Shown piece after piece: positions 17,691-64,000 of a stretch of 64,000 nt of DNA (positions within the stretch are counted from its first letter, which is position 1; each line of letters opens with the position of its first letter). The translations under genes and the position numbers were made by a program. Source of the stretch: Zootoca vivipara (taxonomy: Eukaryota); the NCBI RefSeq assembly GCF_963506605.1, contig NC_083288.1, positions 33,852,001 through 33,916,000 on the forward strand. The letters are read 5' to 3'. Below the pieces are notes generated by a model. It searched no databases. It was not told the DNA's origin and was given only the letters and a program-made list of their open reading frames with translations.

Positions 17691-26259
<8,569 letters not shown>

Positions 26260-27844: not shown

Positions 27845-29066
27845 GCAGGGGGGCAGCTTCAGGACTGCATCTTGTGGCACTCTTGCTGCTCACGAGCTCC
27901 TGGAGCTTGGCCTCAAGTTGCTTCACAGCTTCCACAATTTGACCCAGCTTGCTCAGGATATCTGGACGGCTGAGACATGGGGATGAAAGGGAATCTTCCA
28001 GCTGTTCCTCAGGGTCTGCAGGGAATTAAGTAAGATCAGCATCCAACACAGTAGGGTTAGAAATGAATTAATTAAACACCAAAATCAAAGCTGAGACTCT
28101 TGCGATGGACCCATCACCATCTTCTGTACTTCTCCCATGTGGAAACACAATCCATACAAATTCCGAAAACTTGATATTGCTACGCAGAATTACAAGGCAC
28201 CGTAGTAATGTTTAGGCATTGGCAAGTCTTTCTCCACCTCTGTTTGATATGGCTTTGTTAATAGCTACCGTACCTGCCTAGTCACCTGGGGTGATAAGGC
28301 ACACCACCTGCAGGCAAATCAAGGCAGGAGCTATTTGTATAGAAGAGAACAAAAGCCTTTCTTGTATGGTGCAAAATGTATGCCTTTAATGTACCCCAAA
28401 TTACTAACATTATGTGGGGAGCAGGGGGAAGACAGGTGAGTGTCTTTTTTTTGACATCTAAGATTTATAGATGTTAGCTAGGCTGACTTAATTTTTAAAA
28501 TGTGATTATAAACCCAATTAAACTGGAAATAAAATGAACCAATGTAGAAGGTAAAGGCTGCATATTGGAAGTTTCCAGAGGAAAACAAGCCTCCCTCTTT
28601 CGAAAGAAATGAAGGCTAGGAATAGATATTTACTGAAGGGGGTGGGAGTCAGAGAAAGAGCAGTGAAGAATGGGTGGAGATGGGTTTCTAGGATAGCCAC
28701 GCAATTCTGTGTCAACCTGTGGCTATTTGCTATTGATTGTAAATTATTTCACTTGGAATTGATGGGTGCGGTTTTGTTTGATTCTTTGCTGATATTGTGT
28801 AGATAATATCATCTTGTGGCTGTGTGTGAAAGGGATTCTGCAGCTGTTATACTCTGAATTATAAGAGGATGGCAAGGTGACTTTTGTTGTACATTTGGAT
28901 AATAATTGCCTTCAATCCAGCAATGTAGGAAATATAACTTTAAAAATGGAGCTGGGGAGATGAAAAAAAAATATATTATCGCCTGCCCCAGTAAAGAGTG
29001 CTGCATGATCCTGGGGCGTATTCCGAGGCAGCCAGACCTTAAAAGTAGTCCTGCTGGTGCTTGGTT

Positions 29067-29103
<37 letters not shown>

Positions 29104-31805
29104 ACCTGCCACACCATCCACCTCTCTTACCTGCAACTTGCAAAGTCACTTCCCGGATGCGCACTTCCGGCGTGTATGTGACGTAGCATCTGTAGTTGCC
29201 AGAGTTTCCAGTGCCAACCCGGGAGATGAGCAAGGACGCGTTGCCATTCCCCAGCTCTTCCCGGCTCAGGCTGACACCTTCCCTGGAGGTGGTCACCACA
29301 TCGTCAAATTCCGCCAGCTGCCTGCCCCGGTGGAACCAGAGGATTGTGAGTCGGCTGAGGTCCACGGTAGGCTCATCCACGGTAAAGATGCAATTCAGCA
29401 AGACATCATCTCCAACCGCAGCTTTCACCAGAGAGGGCTCGGCCTGCACTTGCAGCTTCCCGGCTGGGTCAAGCAACACAGAACAGACACATAAGAAGAG
29501 CACTCCTCTTCTTAGGAGTCAGGTCTCACAGTCAGCTGCCGTTTGGCAAGTGCTGAGAAATCAATGAATATGCAGGCATGTGCGAACTGGCCTTAGGGTG
29601 GCAGGCAGCGCATCCTACTTTATCGTTCCGTCTGGGTTGCTGCCTGCTTAACTGAGAAAGTACAACCATTAGACACCTGATAGCTCAGTTGGTTAGAGCA
29701 AGGTGCTGATGACACCAAGGTCGCAGGTTTGATCCCCATATGGGACAGTTGCACATTCCTGCATTGCAGGGGGTTGGACCATTGGGGTACCATTTCAGCT
29801 CTACAATTCCGTCTTCCATGTGACAAGGGCCTTGAAATGGACCATCAACACAGGTCAACAGTCTTCCCCAGGATGTTGAGATGGATTGCATTTTTGTTTC
29901 AATTATAGTGATTGTGTCTAGATTTTCATCCAAACATACAAATTAGCACATGCAGATTTTTACACAAATATATCTTTTTTAAAAAAAAGTTATGTGTTTC
30001 CTCTTTATCAGTGATGCCTATGTGGCTCTAAATAGAATGATTGGGGAAATCTAAGGACCATCTTAAACGGCATCAAACTGAGAAGCCATACAGCCAAAGA
30101 TCATCCGGTGATCGGTCTTCCATGGGCCATCTTGCTTAAATAGCTCAGTAAGTGAGCAGATCTCTTACTTGTAGACTGTCCTGGGTTCAATCCATGCATC
30201 TGTATCTAAAAGCCTACCAGCTAAGAGGGTCGAGAAGAGACTTTTTCCAAATCCTTGGAAGGCTCTTGCCAGTCAAGTTACCGTACGCACCAACAGGCTC
30301 CAATTCAGATAAGCCAACTTAACTTCATTCAGGGGGTGCTTCCAGGCTTTCACTGTATTTGGGTGGGATATAGTCACATACTGTACAGGTAAATTCAGGT
30401 CCCACAACTGCAATGGATTGGGAGGTCTCGTGCAACAAACCTCCTTCCCCAAAAGGCCAGACTTCTTGCGATAAGGAAAGTGACAAGGAAAGGCATCGAA
30501 AGCGTTGGATTGCACTTGCTTCGGTGCAAGGCCATCTAAACACCTCTCAAACAAATCGGGACAAATGAGCAGGTCATCTGGAAAGACCTTGAGTCACCCC
30601 AATGGTGTTGATTTGAAATAGGTTCAGGGCAAGCAAAAGTTTTTCTTTATGAAACACACAGTTTACTTAATTCCACATTAAAAGACTGCCAAATTATATT
30701 GATAATTGCCTAGCAGCAAAAACTGCCCACAAGATTGCAATCTATTGATATATATTGATGTATATATAACTGGGAAAATGGAATCCCCATGTTGAAAGGT
30801 AATGTACCTGTGTTAAAGTACTGAAAGGCTGGGAGCACCAGGTTGCTCCCCAGATGACTGACAGTAGTTAAAAACAATGTGTCTGGTGGTTCACAAGCAA
30901 GTCACAAAGACAACACTGTCCACCCCCTCCTCTCTGCTCCTTTCTCCAGCCCAGCAACACTTCATGCCAAGTGCCAGCCCCTACAACCACTCCACTTAAG
31001 TGGTTGCACATTGCTTTCCAGAATAATGGATAATTGTGAATAATACTGCTGTATTAAGGGACGAGGGTGGCACTGTGGGTTAAACCACAGAGCCTAGGGC
31101 TTGCTGATCAGAAGGTCGGCGGTTCGAATCCCCGCGACGGGGTGAGCTCCCGTTGCTCGGCCCCTGCTCCTGCCAACCTAGCAGTTCGAAAGCACGTCAA
31201 AGTGCAAGTAGATAAACAGGTACCGCTCCGTCGGGAAGGTAAACGCCGTTTCCGTGCGCTGCTCTGGTTTGCCAGAAGCGGCTTAGTCATGCTGGCCACA
31301 TGACCCGCAAGCTGTACGCCGGCTCCCTTGGCCAGTAAAGCGAGATGAGCACTGTAACTCCAGAGTTGTCTGCGACTGGACCTAACGGTCCGGGGTCCCT
31401 TTACCTTTACTGTTGTATTAAGACTGACTTCTTTGGGAAGTGGTGGGCACTCCTTGGCTGGAGTCTAGAGGACCATCTGCCCAGGGTGCTGCAGTCTGGA
31501 GATGGATAACCCATGGCCCTGCAGATGTTCTTGGACTCCCATCAGCCCCAGCCAACACAGCCAATGGTCATAGATGATGGGAATGTAGCCCAGACACATC
31601 TGGAGGGCCACTGGTACCACCAGCGACCTTGCAGTAGTGTCATCCTGCATTGAGCAGGTGGCTGAACTAGATCTTGGCCTCTAAAGTCTCTTCCAACTCT
31701 TAAGATGCCTTTGCTGCCCACCTCCTTCAATTTCAATGCAGGCAACTCACCGGCTTTTCCAAGGAAGCAGAAGGAGGTGAGGAAGATCAGTGTGAAGAAG
31801 CCCAT
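27840..31805 (-). CDS. Secreted single-IgV protein (B7/NCR3LG1-like V domain) with C-terminal coiled coil, 3 coding exons, 187 aa
   Basis: Exon 1 31805-31751 is a signal peptide MGFFTLIFLTSFCFLGKA (phase 1). Exon 2 29463-29131 is an IgV domain (VLLNCIF, ILWFHRG, GNASLLI, NSGNYRCYV; phase 1-1). Exon 3 28015-27840 reads DPEEQLEDSLSSPCLSRPDILSKLGQIVEAVKQLEAKLQELVSSKSATRCSPEAAPLP*. AATAAA on minus at 27061-27066. Exons 1-2 are solid; exon 3 is a strong prediction. Confidence 0.8.
29069..29101. repeat. (CA)n microsatellite
   Basis: Direct read. Confidence 0.95.
31058..31410 (+). mobile_element. Sauria SINE, full length
   Basis: Same family; TSD-like actgctgtattaa/actgttgtattaa. Confidence 0.9.
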
Positions 31806-34480: not shown

Positions 34481-37400
34481 TCAGACATTCTCATAGTCCG
34501 GAGTGTCATCTTCACTTTCCCGATCACTGGTGCCACTGCCAACTACAGGAAAATGTAAGAGGACTTAAAATTACGACAGGGAGATATACGGCCCCACTCA
34601 TAGCCCTCAGGCAATTAGCCAGAGAACTGGATAATGAGGGGCTATAGGGAAATTAAATGAGTGTGTTGCTGAAGGGAAGAACTTCCTAGCAGGCCCACAC
34701 AGCAGGCTTTTTCTACTCACCAAAACAAGGACCCAGGATGGTAGCTTCTGGTTCTAGTACGTTGACATATTCACCTTTGACGGCGAGAGAAAATGGAAGA
34801 TTTAATTAAGGTTTAATGAAGGCAGGGAGGTCAACAGTAGGGGGAGCCAGACCCAGTGATGGGTGGAACCAACTCATTCTAGTTTTCTCCACACCCTTCC
34901 TTCCTGCTGAGTTTGACAAGGGCAACCCTGAAATTAAGGCAGAAGAGTCTAGCAGATGGCGATACCTCTTGGACCACTTGTAAGGAAGGAGGTCATTAAA
35001 AGGGGTTGGGCTGAGGACAGACTGAGCTTAGTGGGGAAGTGCTCTGCTTGTCCTGACAGACCACCCTTCACTGCACCCACCTCAGGAGTGCCTCTCCCTT
35101 GCTCAGTCACAGCAGAGACAGCATAAAGGAGCTGGTTTAACTCAAGAAGACCCGGTTTCAAGTCCCCTTTCACAACCACAAAGCTCCTTGATTCAGCCTC
35201 AGGGATGGACACATAAGCAGTAGTTTATGTGGGCCATCTGCTCAGCACAATTAAACCTGCAGCACCCAGCATTTTTATGATTTTTGCCAAGAAGGTGTAC
35301 TGCTTTGCAGGAGCTATGCAAATTATTATACTTTCTTCAAGAAATTGGAAGCAAGGGTGCTCATAGAAAGGTTTTTAAATATAAGTCTCCGGCAACTAGT
35401 GCAAAAGGGTTGGATCCAGCATTGGCTGGATCTTTCAGTTAGTTGCTTCTATCTGCAACCCTAAATGCCCTTACTAGGGAGTAAGCTCGACTGAATGCTC
35501 TGGGACACCAAAAAATGAACCTTCCACCCACCCGATTCTGCCTGGCCCTGATTCTGCCTAATGATACATCTAGCTGTGCCCGGCATGGCGTGTACAAACC
35601 CACCTCCATTTTCAATGCCATCCTATGCCCTCATTCCTGACTACCCGGGCCCCATAGATCTACTTTCCACACTCACCGGGCGAATTCCGCTCACACTCAA
35701 GCACATTCTCATACTGCCCCCCTAGGGAATCTGAAAAGGAAAAATCGGAAGCACTTTAAACACTGCCCTTTCCCAATTGTGTCCCATGTTACTTTCTCAT
35801 TTAGAATCACTGTGATGCAGCAGTGATGGCCAAACATGGCCCTCCAGCTGTTTTGGGACTACAATTCCCATCATCCCTGACCACTGGTCCTGTTAGCTAG
35901 GGATGATGGGAGTTGTAGTCCCCAAAACAGCTGGAGGGTCAAGTTGGCTATCACTGGGTTAGGGTGTTGCAGCAGGACCTGGGAGACCAGGGTTCAATCT
36001 CCACTCAGCCAAGGGGCTTATTGGGTGACCTTGGAGCAGGCACTGTCTCTTAGCCTAGCCTACTCTGCAGGGTTGCTGTGAGGATTGAATGGGAGAGGGG
36101 AGGAGCCGTTTACATCTGAGTTCCTTGGATGTAAGGTGGGAGAGAGATGAATGCTACATTTAGATGACCCTGAATTTTAAGACAGATAGGTTACCACCAT
36201 GCCCTCCAAGAGAACCCCAGCCCCGATGCCAGGAGGGAGTCAGTCCATCCCACCTGCTGCCAACTCACCTGTGGAAGCACCGTCTTCATTGCCTTGATCT
36301 GTAAGTGGTGCATCTGGCAGCACATCACTGGGGAAGAGAAGGGAAAAGAATCTTTGGTGCTGCGCTGATTCAAGAAATAAGCAGTTGACATGCTGAATGA
36401 AACCCAGCATTGCCTGCTCTGACTAGCAGCAGTTTTCTGAGGTCGAGGGCCAACACTGCTTATATATCTTCATTTGTACTGGAATTGCATTTTTAAGGTG
36501 TTTTTAGATGTTTTAGACATTTTATCGTTTGTGTCTTGCCATCCATTTATAACATATTAACTGCTGCTGGTTGAACATTTTTCATATTCCCCTGCCACCT
36601 TCCCTACTGCAAAATGCGCAATTTTTTTCCAAAGTGGATTTGATGTGCGAAAGCAGCGAAGTGCTTTGGTCCGCTGTAGTTGTGCAAATGTAAATTTGCC
36701 AGTATGCAGATTTAGAAAATGGAATCCGTTCTGCACAGTAGTGCAGATTTGGCTGGACTACAACTCCCATCACCCTTGGCCTTTGGCTGTGCTGGCTGGA
36801 GCTGATGGGAGCTGCAGTCCAACAACCACACATTCCCTATCCACTGCTTTAAGCAGTGAACAACACTGATTGAGCAAGCAGAAGAAAGGTGGTATATAAT
36901 CCATCAAGCAGAGATGCTGGGGATTTTATAGATGCAGAGTACGTAGTGTGCCAACAGGTTCCTATGAATGACCCAGCTAAAATCCATTATAAGGTTTGAC
37001 CTCTGACTCCCCCCCCCCAAAAAAAACACCAGACTTACATGTATGGAGGGACATAGTTGTCATCATTATCTTCATCATCAGTGGCACCAGCTTGTACTGG
37101 AAGCACAGAGACCGGATATGCATATGAGCTTACATTCACATATACTGGGAGCCCCCACCCCAACATTGAGCCAAAACCAGCCTGCGGAATCCAGTCACGA
37201 TGAGGCACAGTCAAGTCCAAGAGCACTGCAAAACTGCAGAGCGAGTAGATGACTCATGCAAGTGAGCTAAGCTGTATATTCCAGAAAGTGGCCTTAAAAC
37301 CAATAATTCCTACTCACCTTCACCTTGGTTTTCATAACTGGGAATGCTTTCTGAGATGGGGACATGCCACAAAGAGAAAAGGAGGGCACTGATTAAGCCT

Positions 37401-38096
37401 ACCGAGTGCCTGCAGCTTCCCAGACCAATGCCATTTGCCCCTCCCCCCCGTTTCTATTTCATAGAAGTAGACCTTCAAAAGGCTATTCATCCCAGTGGCT
37501 AGATTCCCTGACCTCAGCCTTTAAAGGCTTTGGTAGGAAAGAAGCCCCCCAATCCCTCCACTTCCTAAACCTTGCAAAAAGAAAAAAAACCCATTTCCTT
37601 CACAACTCACCATTATCCCTTTCAACTTTGTATGATGGTACTGGATAGGAAATACTGCATGGGGGGCATCTGCTGTGATTGTGAACAAAGAGGGAAAGGG
37701 GTTAATACAGGTACGAAAGTGGCCATGGAATAACAAGGGGACCAAGATGATGCTCCCAACATGCTTTTCTTATTCCAGCCATCACCCCCACTTTGACGAG
37801 GAATCCATAGGTGGTGGAAGAATGCCAACTGGAGATATTCTCTGAAGCTGAAGGCAAGTGATGCTTTTGCATCTAAATGTACTGTATATTCCTGCGTATA
37901 AGACTACATTTTAACCCAGGAAAATCTTCTCAAAAGTCGGGGGGGGGGTCGTAGGTTTTTTTAAAATTTTCTCTTATCAACTGCCCCGTGTGAAAGATAT
38001 TAGGGAGGTTTTTTACGTTTGATGTTTTATCATGTTTTTAATATTCTGTTGAGAGCCACCCAGAGTGGCTGGGGGGAAAACAAGCCAGATGGGTGG

Positions 38097-38386: not shown

Positions 38387-41300
38387 TTTCTCAAGAAACT
38401 ACAGGATCAATGTGGGCAGTGGTGAACATTGTACGCATACAGCTTTACAAACCTGCGGTGACTGACATGCTGATGTTCCCCCACATGCAAAATACATTTG
38501 CTTGCGTGCAGACATACAGTGGTACCTCTGTTTCCAAACATAATCCGTTCCAGAAGACCGTTCTGAGTTCTGAAACATTTGAAAACCGAAAACTCAATAG
38601 CCAACACCTAGGCCTCAGGATCAGCCGCGTGGCATGTTCGACTTCCGAGGCGTGTTCGAAAACCAAAGCATTTACTTCCAGGTTTATGGCATTCGAAAAC
38701 CGAAATGTTCATCGACGGAGTTGTTCGAAAATTGAGGTACCATTGTAATAGAGGGGCAAGGCTTTAAGCACATGTGCTCACTCACAGAAACAAGCTTATT
38801 CTTTGCTCAAAACAGAAGTGTATGGTGTTGGGGATGCCTGGGTGGACAGATGCTCAGCAAGCAGCTCGCAAATTGTTCAGGAATTGCTTACCTCCACACG
38901 TCTGGTTGGGATGAAACGGCAGGCCAAGGTGGGGCTGAAAGGTTGAAGAAAGAGAAGAATGCAGATGCCATCACCTGAGAGGATTACATGAGATCCTAGC
39001 TTTTGGCTCACCTCCCATGCCCCACCCCCACCCCCAAAAAGCAGCAGCATCACAAAGGCCACACTCAAGTCTTTAATGGCTTGGGAGGACCAGGTAAATT
39101 GAAAGGTTATCTTCTCCCACATGCACACCCACTCAAACCTTAAGTTCCTCTCTTCAGAGCCAGAGGCCCTACCTCATTGGCCCTGCCAGGCTACAGGAGG
39201 GGGCAGCTTCTAGGGAGAAGGCCTTTTTGATGGTGGCACCTCTGATCCAAAAGGGCCTCCCCAGAGAGAGCTGCTTGCCCATCAGGTTTGTGGCCTTTTT
39301 GGCACAAGGGGAGAAATTTGTTTTTATCCATCCAGGCCTTTAAAAACAATTTGAATTTTAAAACAACACAAGATCTGGGCTCTAATGGTGTAAGCTGCAT
39401 TTGGTAAATTCCTAACAGAACACATTTTCCTCCAATTTTTTACGCTGTGTTGGCACAGTTTTAAACGTTTTAAAATTATGATGTGTTTTATTTTTGTTTC
39501 ACAAACCACATAAGGGAATATGTTTTGATGGGCAGCCATGGGCATCTGGTAGCAAAGTTTTTCAAAAGTTTTAAAGAAGATACAGGAGACCTCAATACAT
39601 TAATCAGGACTGCTGTTTGATAAGTTTACAATCCCAATTAAAATTGCTTTCCCCTGCACTGTTGTGAATAAATCCTGCTCATTTCACCAGTTTTTCAATG
39701 CGTATTGAATGGTGTGCTTTGTCATTTATATTCTGATGTACACTGCAGTGTGTTTGGTGGGGGAAGTCTTCTTTCTGGTCAGGTAAAATCTGGTTTAACT
39801 GTCAGTGGGGGACCTTAACTGACAGCGGAGGAGGGGCTGGAGATGGAACTCTCAGTATGCAAAAGAAGGATAGAAGATATGCATATTCTGGTTGGTGGTT
39901 GCAGGTTTAGAATGTTTAATTATACAGTGTGATTGGCTGGGGCTAGACTGGGGGACTATAAAGCTGGGTGCTGGCCAGTCAAGGAGCTCAGTCCAGGCTG
40001 GATCACGGAAGAGGAAAGAAGAAGACCTGAGGGGAAGGGAGAGTGGCCAAAGACTGGCTGGGGTAAGTCATGTGAATCACTTGGCTTAGGCTGAAGAGCA
40101 GAGAGGAACCACTCAACATTTACAGCACCAAGAGGCAGTGGCGGAGGAAGAGGGGTGTGGTGGGGGCTGTCCGCCCTGGGTGTCATCCCTGAGGGGAGGG
40201 GACACTGCCCCCCGCCCCCTGGGACATTTGCCATGGGCCCAACTAGCCCCGCCCCCAGCTTGCCCCACCCCCGGGTGCACAGCATGTTCGCTGCTCCGGG
40301 TGCCAGAGCAGCTAGCTCCGCCTCTGCCAAGAGGGCAGGGGTACATGACACTTTTGGCTGCTGGACTCTGGTGTCTGGAATGAAAGCAAGAGTATAGATT
40401 CCAGTACAGTAAAAGAAGACATGTGCTTCTCAGTACATCAGTAGGGGTTAAAACAAAGGCTTCAGTGAAAGTCCTCAGTTATAGTGTTGGTGAGGCACAA
40501 CCAGGGCGAAGTAAATACAAGGGCAATCTGGCAAAAGTGTTTTAATGGGGTAACTAACTGCTTTCTCAAAGCTGTAATAGTAGTGCAAAGTAAGCTTTTG
40601 GAATCAAAGTAAAGTGGTACCTCGGGTTACGAACACGATCTGTTCCGGGACGCAGTTTGTAACCCGAAATGGTCGTAACCCAAAGCGCCATTTTGCGCAT
40701 GCGCAAAGCGCAATTTCTGCGATTTTTGTGCTTTACGCATGCGCAAACCGTGCGCGCTGCTTCTGTGCATGCGCAGAACACGCGCACAGCGAAAATACTT
40801 CCGGGTTTGCGGAGTTCGTAACCCGAGGTGCTCGTAACCCGAGGTACGACTATAACACTAACAAATTAGTACAGTGTATAACCATCTAAAAAGACAGTAC
40901 TATATTAAAGTTACCCCATAAGCTGGTGTACTATAGAAGCTTGCAATACATAGATGTTAATACCTTTGTTAAATATAGTAACTACGGACCACGCCTATAT
41001 CGCAGTTACCATTAGGATTATTGGTGCGTTAAAGGTGCAAAGGGTATAAGTGATATTAAATGCTGGCAGTGGTAAGGTTTTAGGAAAACCACTAAGTGGG
41101 AGTTGGGTTTTGTTAATACAGTCATACCTCCGGTTACGGCCGCTTCAGGTTGCGCGTTTTCGGGTTGCGCACCGTGCTGAACCCGGAAGTCCCGGAATGG
41201 GTTACTTCCGGGTTTTGGCGCTCACACATGTGCAGAAACACTAAATCACACTTTGCGCATGTGCAGAAGCGCCAAATCGCGACCCGCGCGTACGCAGATG

Positions 41301-43247
41301 TGGCGCTGCGGGTTGCAAACGTGCCTCCCGCACGGATCACATTCGCAACCCGAGCGTCCACTCTAAAATAAGTAAGGAAATAGGCCCTATCGCCTCACCA
41401 CAGCTATTATATTAGTCTGAGGGAGGGGGTTCCCAATGAAAATTTGGAGAGGGGAGTCACATGCACAGCAGCTCATGGCTATTAAATAAACAAAACAAAA
41501 CAAAACCCCTGACATTCTCACAAATTAGTATCACATGTAGTTTGCTTCTGACTGGCAATGGGCCAAAAGATCATGCCGTGTTGAATTTAAGAGTATCAGA
41601 AGAGCCTACTAGATCAGGCCAATGGCCCATCTAGTCTGGCATCCTGTTCACAAAGTGGTCAACAGCACTTTCACTTCCTGTGGTTTCCAGCAACTGGTAT
41701 TCAGAAGCATTGTTGCCTCCAACTGTGGAGGTAGACCATAGCCATCAATGGCATTTCAGATCTAAAAGCTGTAAGTTTGGAGCAGAGGATATTGTTAGGA
41801 ATCCTGTAAGATTGTGGCTTGTCAAGGTGGTGGTGGTGCTGAGGCAGAACAGTGGGGCAGATTTGTTCAATGAGACCCCATATGGCTGTATCAGCTTCCC
41901 AGAGNNNNNNNNNNNNNNNNNNNNNNNNNNNNNNNNNNNNNNNNNNNNNNNNNNNNNNNNNNNNNNNNNNNNNNNNNNNNNNNNNNNNNNNNNNNNNNNN
42001 NNNNNNNNNNNNNNNNNNNNNNNNNNNNNNNNNNNNNNNNNNNNNNNNNNNNNNNNNNNNNNNNNNNNNNNNNNNNNNNNNNNNNNNNNNNNNNNNNNNN
42101 NNNNNNGAGACTACAAGCCAGCCTTTCAATTTAAAAATAGTACTGAATGGGCAGCTACTCACAGGGAGGACGTCGTATGTTGAAGGTTTTACTCCGTGCA
42201 CTAGTTGAAGGTCTGTGGGGGCAATGCATTAATCATTCTTCTTTTCACGGACAGTACAGGAATCATGCTTGAGAGACATATCACTCTGCTCCCCAAAACA
42301 GCACAAGAAACTCTCCCCTTCCAGGTTTTGGATGAAACATCAGAAGCTATTTTCTGCAGAGCCAGGCCATTGGCCAACCTCACTCTGTAGAGAACGGCCT
42401 GCACCATGGATGGGGAACCCCGGGCTCTCCAGCTACTGTTGGGACTCCCAACGTCCACCAGCCTCAAGCCCCACCCTCCCAATAGCCAGGGAGTATTATA
42501 GTCTAGCAACTTCCGGAAGGCCACAGGGTTCCTTATCCCTGGGGTCTACACTGACAGACATGGGCTGTACAAGGTTTCAGATCAGAGGCTTTCTCAGCCC
42601 TACTAGGAGATGCCAGGGACTGAACCTGGGACCTTCTGCATGCAAAGCACTTGAAAGAGTAGCATGCTAACACCACAAACAATTTCCCTTTCCTCCACTG
42701 TATCAAAAAGTGGCCTTCATGCAGTATCCATGTGCTTTGCGACTTTGGGAATTGTATATTAGAGTTGGGGTGAGGGGAGTAGACAGAAGGCAGGACCTCT
42801 GTACCTTCCTAGTGGTGCAAAAGAGAAGAAATGCACCTTTTCCTTCTGGGGTAGAAGCTGCCCGTTGCATCTGGCCACCTTAGAACATGCATCCATTTTC
42901 CAAACCCCTCCCCAAGCTCTGGTTTGCGCGCGCACACACACACACATACATTTTACCCCCAAAGTAAACCCCAATCAGTCACTAACTTACTTACTTGTAC
43001 TGGTAATCATCAACAGATGGTGCTGTTGTGAGAGAGGGAAAGAGACACCAATGTAATTAAGAAGTTCACTGGGGGGAGAGCAATGAATGGAGAAGTCGGG
43101 AACTGTTTGCTCCTCAGGGAAAGGAAGTTTGGGGAGGGCAGAAGAGACTTAACTGTCTAATTCAGGGTCCTGGCAGTCAATGCAAAGCACAAGTAGAATC
43201 GCCAGAAGTGGGACAGTAAATGCCAGCACCCAGAAGATGTCATCCAT
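34481..43247 (-). CDS. LAT: Linker for activation of T cells, 11 coding exons, 198 aa
   Basis: Exons (minus): 43247-43154, 43022-42995, 42212-42163, 38934-38892, 37672-37611, 37350-37318, 37096-37039, 36327-36269, 35730-35677, 34774-34721, 34542-34481 (597 nt). N-terminal TM plus CxxC (MDDIFWVLAFTVPLLAILLVLCIDC), then SQPD, SYENQ, YIDVLPD, YENV, YVNV and PDYENV*. Lies directly downstream of SPNS1 on the same strand, as in mammals. Confidence 0.93.
35821..35956. mobile_element. MITE with the same core, third TIR type, beside a SINE remnant
   Basis: CAGTGATGGCCAA...TTGGCTATCACTG ends around the shared ctacaattcccatcatccctgaccactggtc core. Confidence 0.75.
38099..38383. repeat. (AAT)n at 38099-38134 and (CA)n at ~38338-38383
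   Basis: Direct read. Confidence 0.9.
38515..38747. mobile_element. Tc1/mariner-type MITE
   Basis: TACAGTGGTACCTC...GAGGTACCATTGTA. Confidence 0.75.
40136..40326. mobile_element. GC-rich hAT-type MITE
   Basis: CAGTGGCGGAG...CTCCGCCTCTG ends; TSD CCAAGAGG. Confidence 0.8.
40610..40853. mobile_element. Tc1/mariner-type MITE (related element at 41117-41365)
   Basis: GTGGTACCTCGGGTTACG...CGTAACCCGAGGTAC inverted ends; CpG-rich GCGCATGCGC core. Confidence 0.75.
41905..42106. other. Assembly gap (N run) in LAT intron 3
   Basis: About 202 N. The flanking exon phases join without needing a hidden exon. Confidence 0.98.
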
Positions 43248-50844: not shown

Positions 50845-53800
50845 TCAGATCAGGACACTAGAAACAGGGACTTTGGTGGGTCGCCCACCCTGAGGAACAA
50901 CAATGCGATCTTCGCCTTCAGGTGACTCGTGAAATTGCCCTGCAGGGAGAAAGAGTATGGCAGGGTCAGAGGCTGTTTGTCCATGTTAGAGGAAAGGAGG
51001 CTCCTGGTTGTTTGTCCTCCCTTGATTTCCTACATGGTCATACACACTTCCTAACACACAGGACTTATCAAGACTTAAGACATGGGCCATCCCTGCTACT
51101 CAGAAATTGCTTTTGTTGCCACTCAGCTGCAGCCACTACAGCAAAGCCAAAAGCCTCCTCATGTAATTGCCCCAAAAGGTTTCTTCGTGGGGGACAAGGC
51201 ATTCTAAATCAAAAAGATGCTTCCAAAGTGAGGTGATAACAATTGCCGTCTCTTACAAACACTTTTTGGGCAATTTAAAATCACACAGGGAAGCTCCCTG
51301 GACACCCACATTTGGCATTGCCTTCCCTTTCCATCCTAACTCATAACTGGCTGTTACACCACACCATCCTTTTTCCAGGAAAGTTCTATTGTGCCACAGG
51401 AGAGGAGTGGCTTCCTCATGGCACAGAGCCACAATTGTTTTTGCTACTGGGGTGCCTGTTTGGTGCAGCAGTTCCGTGCCAGGCTTCATGGACCTTGACA
51501 TCTCAACTCTGACTGGCCAATGGAGGGAAGAGGTTTTACCTTGTACATACAGCTCTGTGCGCTTACGGTCTGCCTGGATGAAGCAAGCCGTAGCCAGGAA
51601 GAAGCCGCCACCAATAACCCCAACAAAGGCACAGACCATGAGCGCATATTCTAGGCTTCGGAACTGCGACAGGAATGTTTGGGGGCGATCATATTGGATT
51701 CGGTCACTGATCTGGAGAAGGGATTCAGCAAAAGAACACACACAACACACCATTATGCAGTGTCAAGTGGAGCGGCACAACTAATAGGAAAGCTGGCAGA
51801 ATTGGAAATTGGTGGTGTTTCCTAGCACATAGCAATTGATCACAGCTGAGGCAATGAGTGGAAAAAAAACCCACCCCTACTACTCAACCACTCTCTCTCT
51901 CCTCTGGTTTGTTGTGTGCTATTGCTCAAAACTCACTTAAAGGAATCGCAGCTGCAGTAGTTCTAAACCAACAAAATTCTTTCCAACATGTGGAAAACAG
52001 AGTATCTGCTAATGTTGTACAGTATATGTATCATTTATATCGATGCTGGCTTTTAACAAGAATGACTACAAAGTGGTTGACAGGCAATAGAACTATTTTA
52101 ACATTTTTCAAAGCCACACAGTAAATGCATATAAAATAAAAAATTATTTAATACGAATTTGAGAGCACACTTCCAGTTAACTCTCATAAGACCTGGCAAG
52201 ATAAACACATTTTTACACGCCTCCAAACACAGATTGGCAGGCAACATACAAGTAACATTTTGAGAGAGCCTTAGCTTCGGAGTCGCTATTAAGAAGGCCC
52301 TGCTCCCAAATGGAAAACAGTCTGTTCTTAAGATGATCACCCCGAAGCAGAGCTTCATCAGCTGAGCTTAGGTCTTGGGAGGTTAATATTGCACAAGGTT
52401 GCAATGCATCAATTTCCCTTGGCCTGAACAAACATTGCAGGATCAGCCTGGGCTGTTTTGGCCCAAGAAATACAGCTGTGAGAGCCAGTGTGGTGTAGTG
52501 GTTAAGAGCGATAGACTTGTAATCTGGGGAACCAGGTTCGCGTCTTCGCTCCTCCACATGCAGCTGCTGGGTGACCTTGGGCTAGTCACACTTCTTTGAA
52601 GTCTCTCAGCCCCATTCACCTCACAGAGTGTTTGTTGTGGGGGAGGAAGGGAAAGGAAGAATATTAGCTGCTTTGAGACTCCTTAGGGTAGTGATAAAGC
52701 GGGATATCAAATCCAAACTCTTCCTCTTCTTCTTGCAAAGTATGATCTAAGTGTTGGGAAAGAGAGCAAGCAGCTGATGGCAGAGAAAAGAGGAGCTGCT
52801 TGATGGGTAGAATGCCTCAGATGTCGCAAGCTTTGAAAAGCTGATCAGAAGTGCCTTCTCGCTGTCCCAAGCACTTACCAGGCCAATGAGATAAGGACTC
52901 CCAGCATCACCCAGAAGATGCGACAGCAGGATCTGAAAAGCTTCAGCTGTGGATCGGCGTGTGGGGATGACAACATACTGGGAAGAGAATAAAAGCTGAT
53001 TTACTGGTGCCCTCTGCTGGACAGCAAACAAGTTTTAAGGTCGCTTCCCCACATAACTATAAAGCCATTACAAGCCACTCTCTCACACACATTGCTAAGC
53101 CTCTTCTGGTTGCCCTTCACCTTGCTTTTATTCTATACCCGCTTTGGTGTCTTGCACACTCTTGCCAACTGAGGATTTCACTTAGCACATTTGACAAAGG
53201 GGACCAGAAGCCCCCAGAAGCTCATGCAGTCCTCTGTAGAAAAGCAGCAAAGAGGTGCAGTCCTGTATACCATGCCAACTGCCATACCAGACAGTAATTG
53301 TGGTAGTATAGCTATACACCGGTGAACCGTTGCGCCAGTGGATCTATGACACAGTGATACAGCCAAAATGGGATAGGGATTTGGGCAGGACAAGGGAGGA
53401 GAAACCATCATGTTGGAGCTGTAAGAAACAGTACACTGACTACCCTGCTATCTGCCATGGGCACAGAAGCCCTGGAGGGATGCCCAAGGTGCACACTTGC
53501 AGCAACACTTCTAACTCCTCCCTAGAGTAGGCCAGAATTATTGTTTCATTAGAGGGAAAGAGATTTGCCTAAGGATATCTTGTGAATTCTCAGCAGAACT
53601 AAGTTCTTTTTTTAAAAAAAAACCACTGTCAATGGACAGTTAAACTCAGGGCTGGCTCACTCTACTTGATTCACTCTGGCTACCACCACGTGAGAAGGCA
53701 AACGAGAACGGTGCAATTCTGCAACTGAAATAAAAGTCTAATGTTTTGCACACTGCCTCTTCCCCACAGTCTCACCAGAAGGATGTCCGCCACTATGGCC

Positions 53801-56800
53801 CAGTTGAGGGAGAGGAGGGTCTCACCAATGAAGATAAATACCTGCAGAGGAAGGAGGAGTGAAGAGGAGAGACGGCATTATTTTTGTTTTAAAAATCCTT
53901 TTAATTTTTTTTAAAGATTCCAAAGCAGTGTACAAAAGTTTAAAAAGAAGAAGAGGAGTTTGGATTTGACATCCCGCTTTATCACTACCCAAAGGAGTCT
54001 CAAAGCGGCTAACATTCTCCTTTCCCTCCCCCCCCCCAGCTGCATGTGGAGGAGCGGAGACGCGAACCCAGTTCCCCAGATTCTACTGCTCTTAACCACT
54101 ACACCACACTGGCATAGGACAGGCAATGGTGGGACAGGCAACGGTACCCACCATGCCACACCATGGACACTGCCACAAGAAAGCTGGCAGCACCCTCGGT
54201 GGCTGTACCAAATTAACAATTGAAACTTGGGGCAAACTCACGTAGGTGGCAACGATGCTCTGCTTAGCGGTCACCACTGCTAGGAACAGGAAGGGGACAG
54301 AGCCCAGCAGTCCAGTTGCACACACCAGGGGATCAGCACGAGGGTTGGTGCGGCGCCAGCGCCGGGAAATCTCCACCCCAGCACTGACACCCAGCACACC
54401 AGTCACACAAGTGATGACGCCAAAGGTGAGGCTGCAGAGATAACGATATGAAGAATTAATAAAAGCACCGCAGAGAAGGCTCAGAGCACTTCACATATGG
54501 TACACCCCACATTGCAGATGGGAGGATGAGAGACAGCAGCATGCCTAAGGCCATCTAGCAAGTTTACTGCAGGGGCAAGATTCAAGATTTGGGGCATCCC
54601 CATTTGTGACAGTCTCTTAGCCCTTATACTACAAACAGCTCAGAGTTAAGAAACACAGAGGTTTCAAAAGACAGCAGTGGTGAACCTCCACTGCTCAGCC
54701 AAGTGTTCCTCAAGAGAGAGCTGAACTGATGTCATGACTGAGGGCTTTCTCGGCTACTAACTCACCTATCAGAGTCAGAAGCATGTCCTGAGGGAGAAGG
54801 CAGGAGAGTGCCAGCTGCCAGGCGTGAGCGGTACAGGAAAGTTGGTGTCCACAGAGCCAGGGAGCCTGTCACAAAGGCCACAGCTGTGAAGCCTAGTGAT
54901 GACAATATGAAACTGCGACTGTCCATGGGGGGGGGGGAGAGAGAGAGAGAGAGGAAATGTGAGCATAAAACAATAGCCCTAATCATTCCTGCAGTCAAGC
55001 AATTGGAACCATCACAGATCTATTGCAACATAACTTTCCTATGACCTCACCTACAAGAGAGTTGGCTCACCTATTCACAGCTGTAAAAATACAGAGAAAT
55101 CGAACTATAGGCAACCAGGGATGAGCCAGTCCTTAGAAACACTCAGTCATCCCATGGCAGGATCTCTTTTAGGTCACAGTTTGCCCACCTGTAATAGTGA
55201 TGGCACAAGTAGCAAGGTGTTCTCCAGCTCAGGTGGTTACTAGGAGAAAATAACCATACCAGGGAACTGCAACTGGGGACAATTTGTGAAACGCAGTCTG
55301 TAGTGTGCCACTGCCTCCTACAGAGAACATTGCTGATGGCACATCACATCTGCAGAGGGCCACAACCCTAGGCCTAAAGCCTGGGCAGGGGAGAACATTT
55401 TCTGTCAAGGGCTTTATATTCTTGGGTATAAGCTCTTGGGGGCCACATGCCAGGTAGGGTCAGGGCCAGAGGCAATGATGGACAAGGCTACCCCTTTCCT
55501 CTCTCCTTCTCCTCACCTTGTTTCCTATCTAGCAGGCTACTGCAGTGAGGACAGAGCACTCTTATCAGAGGGCTTTTATCACTTCCTCCCTCACTCCATT
55601 TCGCCCTTCCCTCAGTCCCCATTTCCCCACTCCAGCAGTGGCAGACTTTGGGCACTCAAATTTCAGCAGTGCCCTGGGTGCTAAATCTGGCGCCCCCTGT
55701 CTGCCACAGAATTGTTCTACAGAGTAGCACCCAGTACAAACACACCAGTCATACTACCCTAAAACAACCTCTGCCGCAGGACTTCTTTTCTCTAATCATA
55801 TGAAGCTGAGAGCCTCATGAAATTAGGTCAAAGGCTGCATAATGGGCCTTGGACCACAGGCTCCCCACCCCTGTCTTAAAGCAACTCCTTTTCAAGCTAC
55901 TGCACTAGCCTGTTGGCCCTTATTATGTTACAAAGAATGCTGGGGCACTTTCTCGTGGATTAAACAAGTCATCGGCCAGGCCTGCTGGACCTGGTGCGAT
56001 TTAAGCACACACCCTAGAACACATCTCAAGTCTCAACATCTGCTTATAACTGCAGGGGAAGACTGATAATAGTGGACAAGCTTATGCTCAAGGGAACCTT
56101 CGCTGCCATTACCAATTTCCTTAATTAAGTTCCCCAATACTCTGAAGAACCAAATTTCAAAACCACCTCCATAAAGCACTCTGGATAGGTACCTGTCAGT
56201 ATTGCTTTAAAAGCTGCCACAAGAAAGAAGACTGTACAGATTTTCCCTAAGTGGTTTGTTTTGCTTCTCAGTTTCTTGTCCTTTCGCTATCACTAAAGAG
56301 AATATCTACACTGATCTGGAATCAATGAAACTAGGGCAAGAAAGCTACACCTCGGTTTACGAATTTTCGGTTTACGAACGCCTCGGACCCATCTGGAACA
56401 AATTCACTTTCCATTACTTTCAATGGGAAAGTTCGCTTCAGTTTATGAACGCTTCAGTTTATGAATAGACTTCCGGCACCAATTACACCCATGCTTCAGG
56501 TTAAGTACACTTCAGGTTGTGTACTCCGCGGACCCATCTGGAACGGATTAATACACTTTCCATTACTTTCAATGGGAAAGTTTGCTTCAGTTTATGAACG
56601 CTTCAGTTTAAGTACTCCGCAGCAAGCCTGGAACAGATTAATCCATTTTCCATTACTTTCAATGGGAAAGTTCGCTTCAGTTTATGAACGCTTCAGTTTA
56701 TGAACAGACTTCCAGAACCAATTGTGTTCATAAACCGAGGTACCACTGTATTCCGGAGCAATGCAGAAAAGAAAGGTGGGATGTGGCCTACATGGCAGCA

Positions 56801-59120
56801 GTGCATTAAACGGCACCCATTACTCACTTGCGGCTCAGGGCCCGCAGGTCAGCTGCCCAGGAAGTATACTGCAGAGGGGCATCTGAGTGCGTCTCCACAG
56901 TTCCCCGAGGCGGCTCACGCACCACAGTTATCAACAGTATCACCGCCAACGCTCCCAGGGCTGGTGTCACCTGTATGAGAAGATAATGATCTAAGTTGGA
57001 GGCATTCTAAACAGAAGAAAATAAAAACATGTATGCATAGGTGCACAGCAGACAAGCTTACTACAATGTGATGAAGATGAGCTGAACTGCAACATCATAA
57101 GGCAACAAACACCAACCAGTACAATTGTATCCCCACCCTACTCACCCGCAGGGCCCAATGCCAGTCGTCAGCCACATCTTTCACCTTTGAACCCACTATG
57201 TAGCCCAGTCCACTGCAGGTGAAAAGGGAGAACAGTCAGACCCCCCACTCAGGCAGGCTCCCCTCTTTCTGTGAAAGCCAATTAGGTTTGGTCATTGCAA
57301 CAATGGGGGAATGCCAGAGATCAGCGGTAGAGCACCTGCCTTGCATGCAGAAAATCCCAGGTTCACTTTCCAGCATCTCCAGGTAGGGCTGGGAAAAGAG
57401 CCCTGCTTGAAAGCCTGGAGAGCTGCTGCCAGTCAGTGTAGACAATACTGAGCTAAATGGGCCAATGGTCTGAATCAGTTATATAAGGCAGCTTCCTATG
57501 CTCCTATTCCATGGCTTATGTCATGAACACACACATTGTGCTTTGATTGTTGCATAATGTGCTTTGATTGTTCCATAAGCCTGATTGTCAATTTACAGTA
57601 AACAGATTAGTATCTCCAGTTCAACTTCACTACAGTGCATACCCCACCCTAAAACAGACCACAGGGTGTTCGCACCTGCCCACAGGTATGGCGAAGTAGA
57701 AGATGCTGAGCATGCGGGATCGGCGGTCACCCACAAACAGATCAGCAATAATGGTGGGGGCAATAGTTGAGTAGCTGGCCTCTCCTACACCCACCATGCC
57801 TCGTGTCAGCAGCAACAGCCAGAACATCTAATGTGGAGAAAACAAACAAACTGAGGAAATGTAATAGTGTAGCTATAAATCTGAAACACACCCCTAAAGA
57901 ACCTCAGGACATGCAGTCATGTATGGGTGCAAAGAATACTTTGTCAAGTACTGTATTCTTAACCCTTCTCAGAATTACAGTTCCTAGGATTCCTTGTTTG
58001 GTAGCTGTGAGTGTCAAGAACAGGTTTCAAACCTGTTCAGCAGTACTTTATAAATAGCCACTTTTCTGTGGCTTGTGACAAGTCAATCATGCACAAGGCC
58101 TTCCAAAACCGTTTCTTATCGGCTAGCAAATGTTTGTGATTTTATCCAGAGTTCAGCTTAATGACACACAGCTTAAATTGAAGGAAAGCATTGCATCTTC
58201 CCAATCTCAGAGGGCAGCTGTGCCAGATCTCCCCTGCCCCATAAGCCTCAATGCTGGGGGGTGGAAGGGAAGACACACAGATCCCAAACCCAAAGTTCTT
58301 CCCCATGCCTGGGTGAAAACTAATCTACAGAATCTTCTCCCCTGCCCCCATACCTCCTTGGGAATGTAGCTGCTCCCCAGCGTCACTATTGACCAGAAGG
58401 TGATCCCAATGCACATCAGGTATTTGCGATTATAGCGATCCCCCAGGTAACCGAAAATTGGTGCAAGCACCATATAGCTACTAATAAAAACTGAGAAGAA
58501 ATAAATAATTATTTCCAGTGGCAAACACTCCTGCTTCAATAGCACTGCCCTTACGAAGTGCCTGGGTTGCGGGTGGGGAAGAACCAAGCCCCATCACCCT
58601 ACTCACCTGTTTGTAGGAGCCCTGATTTGCTATCATCAATGTTAAAAAATGCCTCAATGTCAGGAAGAACGCCTGAGGTAAGGAAGAAGGATTACAGCAT
58701 TAATACTTGGGAAAGACAACTAAGTATCCTCACCCCAAAACAATCCATCATGCCCATAATTATTTAAAATTAAGGATTAATGTTTTTGGGGAGAAAACCA
58801 ACCCCTCATCGCTTTAAAACTTACAGCGCCCACCCTCCTGACACAGCCAGGAAGAGAAGCCTAAAGTTCCAGCTACCGTCCCATAGCACCCCAGCACCCT
58901 TACCAGCCACAGTGAAGCGGTCCATGTAGTTCAGTAGGTTAACAAAGCAGAGAACTCCCACAATGAAGCCAGCCCGTGTAGAGGAGATGCCCGTGAGGGT
59001 CTGTACCTCTTCTTCCCCTTCATGCCCAGTTTGCAGACCATCCTTTCCCTCTTCCTCTGTGTCATCTGCCTGGGTCAGGATTGGGGCTGTATCCACGTAA
59101 GGTTGCCGCTGAGATGCCAT
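50845..59120 (-). CDS. SPNS1: Protein spinster homolog 1 (lysosomal MFS transporter), 12 coding exons, 518 aa
   Basis: Exons (minus): 59120-58904, 58672-58607, 58490-58354, 57827-57676, 57212-57146, 56970-56828, 54918-54766, 54431-54242, 53841-53776, 52977-52879, 51711-51540, 50939-50845 (1557 nt). Motifs [63 protein letters not shown], and SPNS1-type C-terminus [20 protein letters not shown]. Confidence 0.97.
52480..52732 (+). mobile_element. tRNA-derived SINE (second family)
   Basis: GAGAGCCAGTGTGGTGTAGTGGTTAAGAGC head, GGTTCG B box, CTT-rich tail. Confidence 0.8.
53948..54112 (-). mobile_element. Internally deleted copy of the second SINE family
   Basis: Aligns to 3988-4230 with the middle missing. 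Confidence 0.75.
56346..56750. mobile_element. Tc1/mariner-type MITE with three internal repeats
   Basis: ACCTCGGTTTA...TAAACCGAGGTACCACTGTA ends; TTTCCATTACTTTCAATGGGAAAGTT-type block occurs three times. Confidence 0.75.
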
Positions 59121-59599
59121 GGCCAGCGGCAAGAAGAACCCACTGGAGAGACAATATGAGATAGCCAGCCCCTTACAAACCCTAAAGAACTGCAGGGGAG
59201 AACAGCAAAAGGTCGCCTTTGGCAAGTAACCAGTCTTATGGCAGTTACTGAGGAGCTTAACTAGGGCGAGAAAAGCAGACCAGAAGAAGACGACCAGAAG
59301 AGAAAGTCAGTCAGTAATACAAATGCAAAACACACCCACTGTTCAGCATTATATTCTCATTTCCCACTCCTTTATTATTTTTATTTTTTATTACATACAT
59401 ATATTGCTATAATGTAAACAAAGCCAGAGATGAATTTAAGCGTAGTTACTCAGAGTCACATCTCGGACTGAAGGGAGAAAAATGACAACAGGCCCCTTAC
59501 TCCGCCAAGCCTGACCTCACCCTGAAGCTATAATTAACCTGTAGCCCCCCCGAAACCCCCTTTCCCCTCCAATTCTAACCTGAGAGTTACCTAGGGAGG

Positions 59600-61011: not shown

Positions 61012-61230
61012 CAGGGGTCAGCAAACTTTTTCAGCAGGGGGCCGGTCTACTGTCCCTCAGACCTTGTGGGGGTCCGGACTATATTTTGAAAAAAAATATG
61101 AACAAATTCCTATGCCCCACAAATAACCCAGAGATGCATTTTAAATAAAAGGACACATTCTACTCATGTAAAAACATGCCGATTCCTGGACCGCCCGCAG
61201 ACCGGATTTAGAAGGTGATTGGGCCGCATC
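61012..61230. mobile_element. Left part of a hAT-type non-autonomous element, interrupted by CR1
   Basis: CAGGGGTCAGCAAACTTTT TIR-like start after CCCTAGGT. The right end is not in the window. Confidence 0.6.
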
Positions 61231-62330
61231 CATGTAGTAATGGGGGATTTCAACTATCCTGATATTTGTTGGATGTCAAACTCAGCCAAGAGCATAAGGT
61301 CGAACAGATTCCTCACTGGCCTTGCAGACAACTTCATTGTCCAGAAAGTGGGAGAAGCAACAAGAGGATCAGCCATTTTAGATCTGGTCCTAACCAATAG
61401 TGATGACTTGGTTAGTGGGGTAGAAGTGGCAGGATCATTAGGTGGGAGTGACCATGCTCTTCTGGAGTTTATTATCCAGCGGAAAGGAGCAACCAAGCAT
61501 ACTAAGGTCCAAATTCTAGACTTTAAGAAAGCCGACTTCAGAAAACTTAGGGAAACGCTGGGTGAAATCCCATGGACAGTAATACTAAAAGGGAAGGGAG
61601 TTCATGATGGTTGGGAGTTTGTTAAAAGGGAGATATTAAAAGCACAACTTCAGGCAATACCAATGAGACGGAAACATGGAAGGTGCCTAAAGAAGCCAGG
61701 CTGGCTATCTAAAGAACTTTTGACTGAGTTAAGATTTAAAAGGGATATGTACAAAAAATGGAAAAGGGGGGAAATCTCCAGAGAGGAATTCAAACATATA
61801 GCCAGCACGTGTAGAGACAAAGTCAGAAAAGCTAAAGCACAGAATGAACTCAGGCTTGCTAGAGAGGTTAAAAGCAACAAAAAGGGCTTTTATGGGTATG
61901 TCCGTAGCAAAACGAAGAACAAGGAAACAGTGGGGTCACTCAGAGGAGAAGATGGTGAAATGCAAACAGGGGACAGAGAAAGGGCAGAACTCCTCAATGC
62001 CTTCTTTGCCTCAGTCTTCTCCAAGAAAGAAAACAACGCCCGACCTGAAGAATATGGAGCAGATGATTCAGCAGGGGAAACACAGCCCAGAATAAGTAAG
62101 GAGGTAGTACAAGAATACTTGGTTAGTTTAGATGTATTCAAGTCTCCAGGGCCAGATGAACTACATCCAAGAGTATTAAAAGAACTGGCAGAGGTGATTT
62201 CAGAACCACTGGCAATAATATTTGAAAATTCCTGGAGAACAGGCGAAGTTCCAGCAGACTGGAGGAGGGCAAATGTTGTCCCTATTTTCAAAAAGGGGAA
62301 AAGAGAGGACCCAAACAATTACCGCCCAGT
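61231..62330 (+). mobile_element. CR1 LINE ORF2 fragment (endonuclease C-half to start of RT)
   Basis: Open frame with VMGDFNYPDICW, AILDLVLTN, SDH, KSPGPDELHPRVLKELA, WRRANVVPIFKKG..NYRPV. Confidence 0.95.
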
Positions 62331-64000
62331 GTGAAAAAGGTGAAATACCTAGGAGTAAATATGACATCAAAAAATCTGAATCTTTATAAGGATAATTATG
62401 AGAAGTTATGGAATGAAATTAAAAGAGATCTGGAAATATGGTCAAGGTTGAAATTGTCCTTAATGGGCAGAATAGCAACTGTTAAAATGAATGTATTGCC
62501 GAGAATGTTGTTTTTATTTCAGGCTCTTCCGATAGTAGATAAGATGAAATGCTTTCAAGAATGGCAGAAGACATTGTCTAAATTTGTCTGGCAAGGGAAG
62601 AAACCTAGGATTAAATATAAACTTTTGACAGATGTAAAAGAAAGAGGAGGATTCTCTTTGCCAGACTTAAAGATTTATTTTGAAGCTGCAGCTTTTTGTT
62701 GGCTGAAGGAATGGTTTTTGCTAGACAATGATGATTTGTGGGTTTTGGAGGGCCATGATAATGCATTCGGGTGGCATGCATATTTATGGTATGATAAAGT
62801 AAAGTTGCATAAAGGTTTTAAAAATCATATAATTAGGAAATCATTGTTTAATGTATGGATTAGATATAAAGATTTGTTGGAAAGAAAAACTCCTAGGTGG
62901 ATTTCACCACTTGAGGCAAAGAAACCTAAAAGGACAAATATGGATGAGAATAGGCTGAAATACAAAGACATTTTGATGGAGGAGGGAAGCCAATTTAAGT
63001 TAAGGCCATATGAACAATTGAAAGATAGGTTGAGTGATTGGTTTCAGTATGTGCAGATAAATGAAGCATTCAAGTTAGATAAAAAATAGGATTCCAATCA
63101 GAAAAGTCGAAATTAGAAATAGAATTATTAGATACAGATAGCAAGAATTTGTCCAGAATGTATAATTTGCTGCTAGAATGGCATTTGAAAGATGAACAAA
63201 CAAAATCGGTTATGATTGAATGGGCCAAGGATTTGGGTCATAATGTGATGATGTCGGATTGGGAAAAATTGTGGAAGAAGGGTATGAAGTTTACGGCATG
63301 TACTGTGTTGAAGGAGAATCTGATGAAAATGATGTACAGATGGTATTTGACGCCGGTTAAGTTAGCGAAAATGTACCACAAAAGTGACAACATATGTTGG
63401 AAATGTAAAGAGGATGTTGGCTCATTCTACCATATGTGGTGGACATGCCCTAAGATAAAAGGCTTCTGGGAAATGATTTATAATGAAATGAAAAAGATTT
63501 ATAAAAATACATTTCTGAAGAAACCGGAAGCCTTTCTACTTGGAATAGTAGGGGAAGAAATTCCCAAAGACGATGTTACTTTGTTCATGTACGCCACCAC
63601 AGCTGCTAGGATTTTAATAGCAAAATATTGGAAAAAAGAGGAATTGCCCTCGTTACAGGAATGGCAAATGAAAATGCTGGACTATATGGAACTGGCAGAA
63701 TTGACAGGAAGACTCCGGGACCAAACAAGTGACAAAGTTGAAAAAGAATGGAGGAGGTTTAAAATATATATAGGGAAAGTATTTGATAATTAGGATTCTG
63801 AATATCCAGGGAAATAAAGAAGTTAAGGCAATAGGGAGAAAATATGAGGTTAAAAGTAGTAAATTTTGGTGGATGGTAGAAAGATGAAAATAAGAAGAGT
63901 TAAAGGGATTATGCGATGGGTAAGAAAGATGAAATAGAAACTGCTACAGATGTATATAAAAAAGGAAAATCAGATAGTGGGGAATTGGGGAAGCCAAAAG
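62331..64000 (+). mobile_element. 5'-truncated L1 LINE (ORF2 C-terminal half plus 3' UTR) joined to the CR1
   Basis: VKYLGV, LSLMGRIATVKMNVLPR, FVWQGKKPRI, ERGGFSLPD, CWKC..HMWWTC zinc knuckle. One frameshift at A6 63081-63086; ORF2 stop at 63793. Confidence 0.93.

Follow-up and report, generated by a model that had tools for sequence, protein, structure and literature searches.

The tyrosine of LAT that recruits PLC-gamma1, Tyr132 in human and Tyr136 in mouse, is preceded by a glycine (Gly131 and Gly135, respectively) whose conservation is described with differing breadth in three papers: as high across mammals and frequent among other vertebrates, on the basis of 43 mammalian and 16 further sequences (PMC5089863), as holding in "nearly all" tetrapod LATs (PMC8085316), and as holding in "all known" tetrapod LATs, with Asp or Glu in some fish (PMC10079008). 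The latter two use this conservation as an argument for a selected, slow phosphorylation of Tyr132. PMC5089863 reports that phosphorylation of a human Tyr132 peptide is improved by "virtually any other residue" at position 131, 16-fold in the case of G131D. Altered selection and self-reactivity are described for G135D mice. PMC9768323 places the mouse -1 residue in exon 7, as it is in the lizard gene described here.

Compared with mammalian LAT, the LAT of Zootoca vivipara is the same gene, with a Y[I/L]xV-L-P-D site and three downstream YxN sites, but it has Pro at -1 and Asp at +2, and its upstream tyrosine lies at -4 without YxN, where the mammalian YxN tyrosine lies at about -5. With Pro at -1, the site has neither the Gly of the Gly131 type nor the Asp or Glu of the fast fish type. 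Fish LATs of the latter kind and the engineered G131D and G135D proteins resemble it in that the -1 Gly is replaced, naturally or by design; their acidic residues, however, speed the step, which the uncharged Pro of the lizard is not predicted to do. Other squamate LATs share the -4 tyrosine, the lack of YxN before the site (32/32) and the downstream motif, but most keep Gly, and the Lys of Varanus and the Asn of Eublepharis are separate changes. No earlier report of Pro at this position was found in the literature searched, which lacks most subscription papers, Lo et al. 2019 among them. That study is said to contain a cross-species alignment of LAT, so a lizard with Pro may already appear in its figures. 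The substitution has apparently gone unremarked in print, although the sequences have been public for years.

The window, by which we mean the whole stretch of 64,000 nucleotides analysed, holds a LAT gene of 11 coding exons running from 43247 to 34481 on the minus strand, in which every intron is GT-AG (Table 1). Its 198-residue product is identical at 198/198 residues to the database LAT of Z. vivipara (P0031), and the sister isoform P0036, which contains all 198 residues plus a 2-residue insertion, reaches 45.3 bits with Pfam PF15234, above the curated cut-off of 27; a Pfam search with six single LAT exon pieces gave no match. PMC5089863 characterizes LAT by a hydrophobic anchor with CxxC and by a Y[I/L]xV site. 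Exon 1 encodes a hydrophobic N-terminal run followed by C-I-D-C and, used as a query, found the LATs of Zootoca and Podarcis, and the four distal tyrosines comprise one Y[I/L]xV site (Tyr122, YIDV) and three YxN sites (Tyr149, YENV; Tyr163, YVNV; Tyr195, YENV). One exon among those at 51-59 kb matched spinster homolog 1 with an E value of 3e-21, and a LAT-SPNS1 neighbourhood is recorded for other vertebrates in PMC10079008. The identification of the gene as LAT in the earlier note is thus upheld by the identical product, the Pfam score and the SPNS1-like neighbour. Alternative acceptors of exon 5 (37672 in the window; P0001, P0031, P0036 and P0038) give isoforms that lie 1-3 residues apart.

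Table 1. Coding exons and key codons of LAT in the window, with the basis of each assignment.
Feature	Position	Strand	Basis or remark
Coding exon 1 (transmembrane segment, CxxC)	43154..43247	-	finds Zootoca and Podarcis LAT
Coding exon 2	42995..43022	-	product identical to P0031
Coding exon 3	42163..42212	-	product identical to P0031
Coding exon 4	38892..38934	-	product identical to P0031
Coding exon 5	37611..37672	-	joint to exon 6 in X1 and X3
Coding exon 6	37318..37350	-	joints in X1 and X3
Coding exon 7 (Tyr118, Pro121, Tyr122)	37039..37096	-	joints in X1 and X3; genome search
Tyr118 codon, 4 residues upstream of Tyr122; Pro121 makes Y-V-P-P (YxxP) instead of Y-x-P-G	37053..37055	-	translation, cross-species comparison
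Pro121 codon CCA, -1 of the PLC-gamma1-site Tyr; Gly in most tetrapods sampled	37044..37046	-	present in 5 lacertids and in Rhineura
Tyr122 codon TAC, counterpart of human Tyr132	37041..37043	-	Y-I-x-V-L-P-D motif
Coding exon 8 (completes the motif, I-D-V-L-P-D)	36269..36327	-	joints in X1 and X3
Coding exon 9 (YENV site)	35677..35730	-	joints in X1 and X3
Coding exon 10 (YVNV site)	34721..34774	-	joints in X1 and X3
Coding exon 11 (YENV site, stop)	34481..34542	-	joints in X1 and X3

The minus strand from 37058 to 37041 translates as N-Y-V-P-P-Y, and the phase-2 GT donor that follows 37039 joins the AG acceptor that precedes 36327 to give P-Y-I-D-V-L-P-D across the joint. Both the Pro before the PLC-gamma1-site tyrosine and the Y-I-x-V-L-P-D motif that had been proposed for exons 7 and 8 are therefore present, in a region that is a short acidic linear motif. 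Two runs from separate studies, X1 and X3, both presumed to be RNA, each have one contig that carries this joint and the other five between exons 5 and 11; the short side of the support for the exon 7/8 joint measures 58 letters, the entire exon 7. Because Pro121 and Tyr122 lie within one exon, the -1 residue is immune to alternative acceptors, and none of the eight other GT/GC donors listed in or just after exon 7 exchanges it: the four upstream of the tyrosine remove it, and the four downstream reach a stop. None of the alternative splice sites listed puts another residue before the tyrosine, which had been named as a possible undoing of the Pro. An in-frame AG lies at 36351, 24 bases upstream of exon 8, and is absent from the exon joints listed in the sequencing contigs. 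Among the sequencing rows listed, all but 16 of lower support, no other letter occurs at the Pro121 codon. Searching the lizard's own genome with exon 7 gave a single match besides this locus, a weak one (E 3.1), with no second, Gly-bearing LAT copy seen. That the Pro is an artefact, whether of faulty sequencing, of mis-splicing or of confusion with a divergent paralogue, is next to inconceivable: the codon is without raw-read backing (run X20 has <1x depth over the LAT exons, and none of the listed pieces of X19, a DNA-like run, covers the codon), but its recurrence in database proteins from five other species already excludes a sequencing error, the exon joints occur in contigs of two studies, the genome has one LAT locus and the adjoining gene is SPNS1-like, as with LAT of other vertebrates.

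The -1 residue was surveyed with one protein per species, taken from homologue searches and cluster look-ups. The word-indexed protein search is lossy and missed turtle and bird LATs that another search found; the proteins retrieved do not include teiids, gymnophthalmids, other amphisbaenians, tuatara or crocodilians, nor human LAT, for which the motif quoted in the earlier note was used in comparisons. Thirty-three squamate species were sampled, 32 of them with the motif and one, Phrynosoma, with a model that lacks it. Among the 32, Gly stands at -1 in 24, Pro in 6, Lys in 1 (Varanus komodoensis) and Asn in 1 (Eublepharis macularius), with Pro confined to five lacertids (Zootoca, three Podarcis and Lacerta agilis) and the amphisbaenian Rhineura floridana. 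All 13 snakes sampled have Gly, as do 28 of the 29 named non-squamate tetrapods, the remaining one being a model without the motif; amphibians and turtles sampled have it in 8/8 and 2/2 species, and the fishes sampled have Gly in many cases and Asn in a catshark and an arowana. A departure from the tetrapod Gly norm, as first noticed in Zootoca, is thus borne out, but not the view of this ectotherm as a special case, since Pro is common to six species and other lizards also depart from Gly. A change specific to Zootoca was rejected on the Pro of the four other lacertids and Rhineura.

A tree was built from 31 rows (28 squamates with a tortoise, a duck and a caecilian), leaving out Sceloporus, Lerista, Phrynosoma, Thamnophis sirtalis and Notechis because their sequences are partial, aberrant or near-duplicates. 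A branch with support of 96/93, which occurs in 96% of 200 bootstrap trees, separates the six Pro rows from the rest, and three changes suffice for all four -1 states on the squamate tree. Judged from these sequences, Pro is a clade trait of lacertids and Rhineura with a single origin, likely fixed once in their common ancestor. As teiids and the other groups named above are unsampled, this origin is bracketed: at or before the lacertid-Rhineura ancestor and after the split from Toxicofera. Lacertidae and Amphisbaenia together constitute Lacertibaenia, and they split about 150 Myr ago according to a review (PMC8622242), so Pro is likely at least that old. Lacertid and Rhineura LATs are identical at 145/198 residues.

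Several database models show peculiarities of their own. One Rhineura LAT model has 12 extra residues two positions after the PLC-gamma1 tyrosine, which would break the motif. In the E. macularius models (P0013/P0025/P0039), an apparent 4-residue deletion removes the upstream tyrosine together with the Gly and leaves Asn at -1. The V. komodoensis models (P0006/P0026), on which the Lys at -1 rests, are without the upstream tyrosine. A mammal-type LAT cluster (Logan proteins P0095/P0113/P0114) has an Arg between Gly and Tyr, and hence Arg at -1, in 3/3 members, and Erythrolamprus reginae (P0053-P0057) has two LAT-like models on contigs that differ in length, which may reflect a duplicate or an assembly haplotype.

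Two tyrosines precede the PLC-gamma1 site in amphibians, turtles and birds, one at -9 within YxN (15/15) and a second at -4 without YxN (14/15; Y-I-P-G in the tortoise). Most rodents sampled have kept a single one, a YxN tyrosine at -5 to -8, and monotremes have neither the -9 YxN nor the -4 tyrosine. Among squamates the -4 tyrosine is present in 27/32 and absent in 5/32, no tyrosine was found at -9 in the aligned stretch, and YxN within the eight residues before the site occurs in 0/32. From this comparison, the ancestral tetrapod LAT seems to have had both tyrosines, of which squamates kept only that at -4. Because the -4 position is the only one retained in squamates and is without YxN in the other groups, the YVP tyrosine (Tyr118) likely corresponds by descent to the -4 tyrosine seen in turtles, birds and amphibians, and human Tyr127 is likely not its homologue. 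The claim that a Y127 equivalent had lost its YxN in Zootoca is therefore half right: YxN is indeed absent, here as in all 32 squamates, but the comparison was likely made with a tyrosine other than the homologue of Y127. Homology of the YVP tyrosine with Y127 was rejected as a likely misalignment, the match being to a -4 tyrosine that never had YxN.

On the basis of motif homology, the lizard site once phosphorylated would recruit PLC-gamma1 and limit the responses of T cells to weak ligands. How the Pro would affect its phosphorylation was predicted from two substrate matrices. The -1 values for human ZAP-70 are R 0.40, K 0.50, P 0.59, G 0.75, N 1.20, E 1.95 and D 3.39 (supplement of PMC11136658), and those for AncSZ, the reconstructed ancestor of Syk and ZAP-70, are K -0.24, G -0.23, R -0.21, P -0.05, N -0.05, D +0.34 and E +0.39 (supplement of PMC10065799). 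Both matrices place Pro among the disfavoured residues and far below the acids. They differ in sign, with Pro slightly below Gly for ZAP-70 and above it by about 30% of the Gly-to-Asp gap for AncSZ. The two lowest ZAP-70 values at -1 belong to Arg and Lys, and Lys is among the two worst in both. With the ZAP-70 matrix, the Tyr122 site scores -1.67 (log2) with Pro, -1.34 with Gly and +0.84 with Asp, and its predicted score is the lowest of the four distal tyrosines in Zootoca; the unphosphorylated tyrosine at -4 accounts for part of this, as phospho-Tyr there brings the score to +0.94. The PLC-gamma1 site scored lowest of the four in 3/3 Pro-bearing species scored, and in 16 of the 22 species scored altogether, with 2 ties and 4 misses at a one-decimal reading. 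In Eublepharis it scores 2.2 and is not the lowest (others 2.1, 2.0 and 1.5). The Asp/Gly ratio of the ZAP-70 matrix is 4.5-fold against 16-fold measured, and the matrix therefore understates context effects.

We lean, by a small measure, towards the Gly-to-Pro change being a conservative swap that would keep Tyr122 a poor and slow substrate of ZAP-70. The kinase would favour an acid at -1, and Pro, like Gly, offers none and scores low; the delay before PLC-gamma1 recruitment would persist, altered at most a few-fold and falling far short of the fish-type or G131D state, and selection in tetrapods would act to keep a non-acidic, unfavourable -1 residue and not glycine itself. The slow step is predicted to persist because Pro lies near Gly and far below Asp in both matrices. 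Four departures from Gly were found among tetrapod-type sequences (Pro, Lys, Asn and Arg), none of them acidic though Asp and Glu are one base from Gly. This accords with selection acting on slowness and not on glycine as such, but four events are few, too few to test whether acids are excluded.

The result that nearly any replacement of Gly131 is better phosphorylated in the human peptide (PMC5089863) counts against a conservative swap and in favour of a retuned rheostat, in which Pro shifts the rate enough to alter ligand discrimination or temperature dependence in these lizards. We regard this as unlikely. Its further support comes from the AncSZ matrix, with Pro above Gly, and from the genetic code, by which Gly-to-Pro takes two base changes or an indel pair and is less likely by drift alone. 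The retuned discrimination that the earlier note had put forward does not sit well with the place of Pro below Gly in the ZAP-70 matrix, nor with its distance in both matrices from the Asp and Glu of some fish. The link to temperature is unsupported because most ectotherms sampled keep Gly (24/32 squamates, 8/8 amphibians and 2/2 turtles). Temperature adaptation as the reason for Pro was accordingly rejected, ectothermy failing to predict the -1 residue. The Pro clade also covers species of cold climates (Zootoca) and of warm ones (Podarcis and Rhineura).

Pro121 is at the same time the +3 residue of Tyr118, a position at which Pro is the best residue in the ZAP-70 matrix (2.61, against 0.84 for Gly), and the predicted score of Tyr118 is 2.52 with Pro and 0.88 with Gly. 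Phosphorylated YxxP motifs are read by SH2 domains of the Crk, Nck and Itk type. Lacertids and amphisbaenians might have rebuilt LAT proofreading, with one Pro keeping the PLC-gamma1 tyrosine slow and creating a YxxP site that would be phosphorylated first, so that recruitment would become an ordered, primed two-step process or proceed via a new adaptor; we hold this to be quite unlikely. Lower still is the chance we give to an effect of Pro through the upstream tyrosine, where Y-V-P-P as a better ZAP-70 site could bind an SH2 protein that reads pYxxP, or phosphorylation there could prime the tyrosine of the PLC-gamma1 site and so put an ordered step before it. The motif is identical in 6/6 Pro-bearing species, and the predicted rise of Tyr122 on phosphorylation at -4 would suit such priming. 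The -4 tyrosine is, however, missing in the five squamates noted above, and priming from it would hold for Gly-bearing squamates too, in which it scores 2.4-3.0 in 5/6 species scored and 1.4 in one, so that no net gain is predicted from Pro.

Just as improbable, in our estimate, is relaxed constraint, under which the -1 position would drift in squamates because the proofreading step matters less there. Three independent departures in 32 squamates, against 0 in the 28 named other tetrapods with the motif, are in keeping with such drift, and the segment that precedes the site has been remodelled in Varanus, Eublepharis, skinks and Anolis carolinensis. Yet Gly is kept in three quarters of the squamates, all 13 snakes included, none of the squamates has an acidic -1 residue, and Pro has been retained in both Rhineura and the lacertids, although at their level of identity the retention of any one site is unremarkable.

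The Gly-to-Pro change is of interest because lacertids and amphisbaenians, which have likely had Pro ever since they split from each other, separate two readings of tetrapod conservation, selection for glycine itself and selection for any slow residue. Should Pro, Lys and Arg all prove slow, they would provide independent evolutionary support for the proofreading model; should Pro or the gecko Asn prove fast, some amniotes, a laboratory lizard among them, live without the brake. If proofreading was indeed rebuilt around the YxxP site, squamates would form, together with the Komodo Lys and the 4-residue deletion of the leopard gecko, a natural series of alleles of the timer by which T cells discriminate ligands. 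As a candidate for a released brake, the Asn of Eublepharis, a laboratory species, ranks above the Pro of lacertids by its matrix values, with a predicted release that is modest. The lacertid Pro itself is predicted to be of small effect, a useful natural single-residue variant of a known step and not a new mechanism.

The remainder of the window contains further features around LAT. Upstream of the gene lie the exons of a spinster-1-like transporter (51253-59306, minus strand), and just downstream is an immunoglobulin-domain exon (29042-29518, minus strand) with Pfam I-set/V-set matches above the cut-off. A weak match to ADP-ribosylglycohydrolase at 18040-18456 on the minus strand (E 5e-5, below the cut-off) is probably an exon of an ADPRH-like gene. 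Open frames resembling pieces of LINE retrotransposons occupy 61219-63793 on the plus strand, which we take to be a CR1-like endonuclease region followed by an L1/L2-like C-terminal part.
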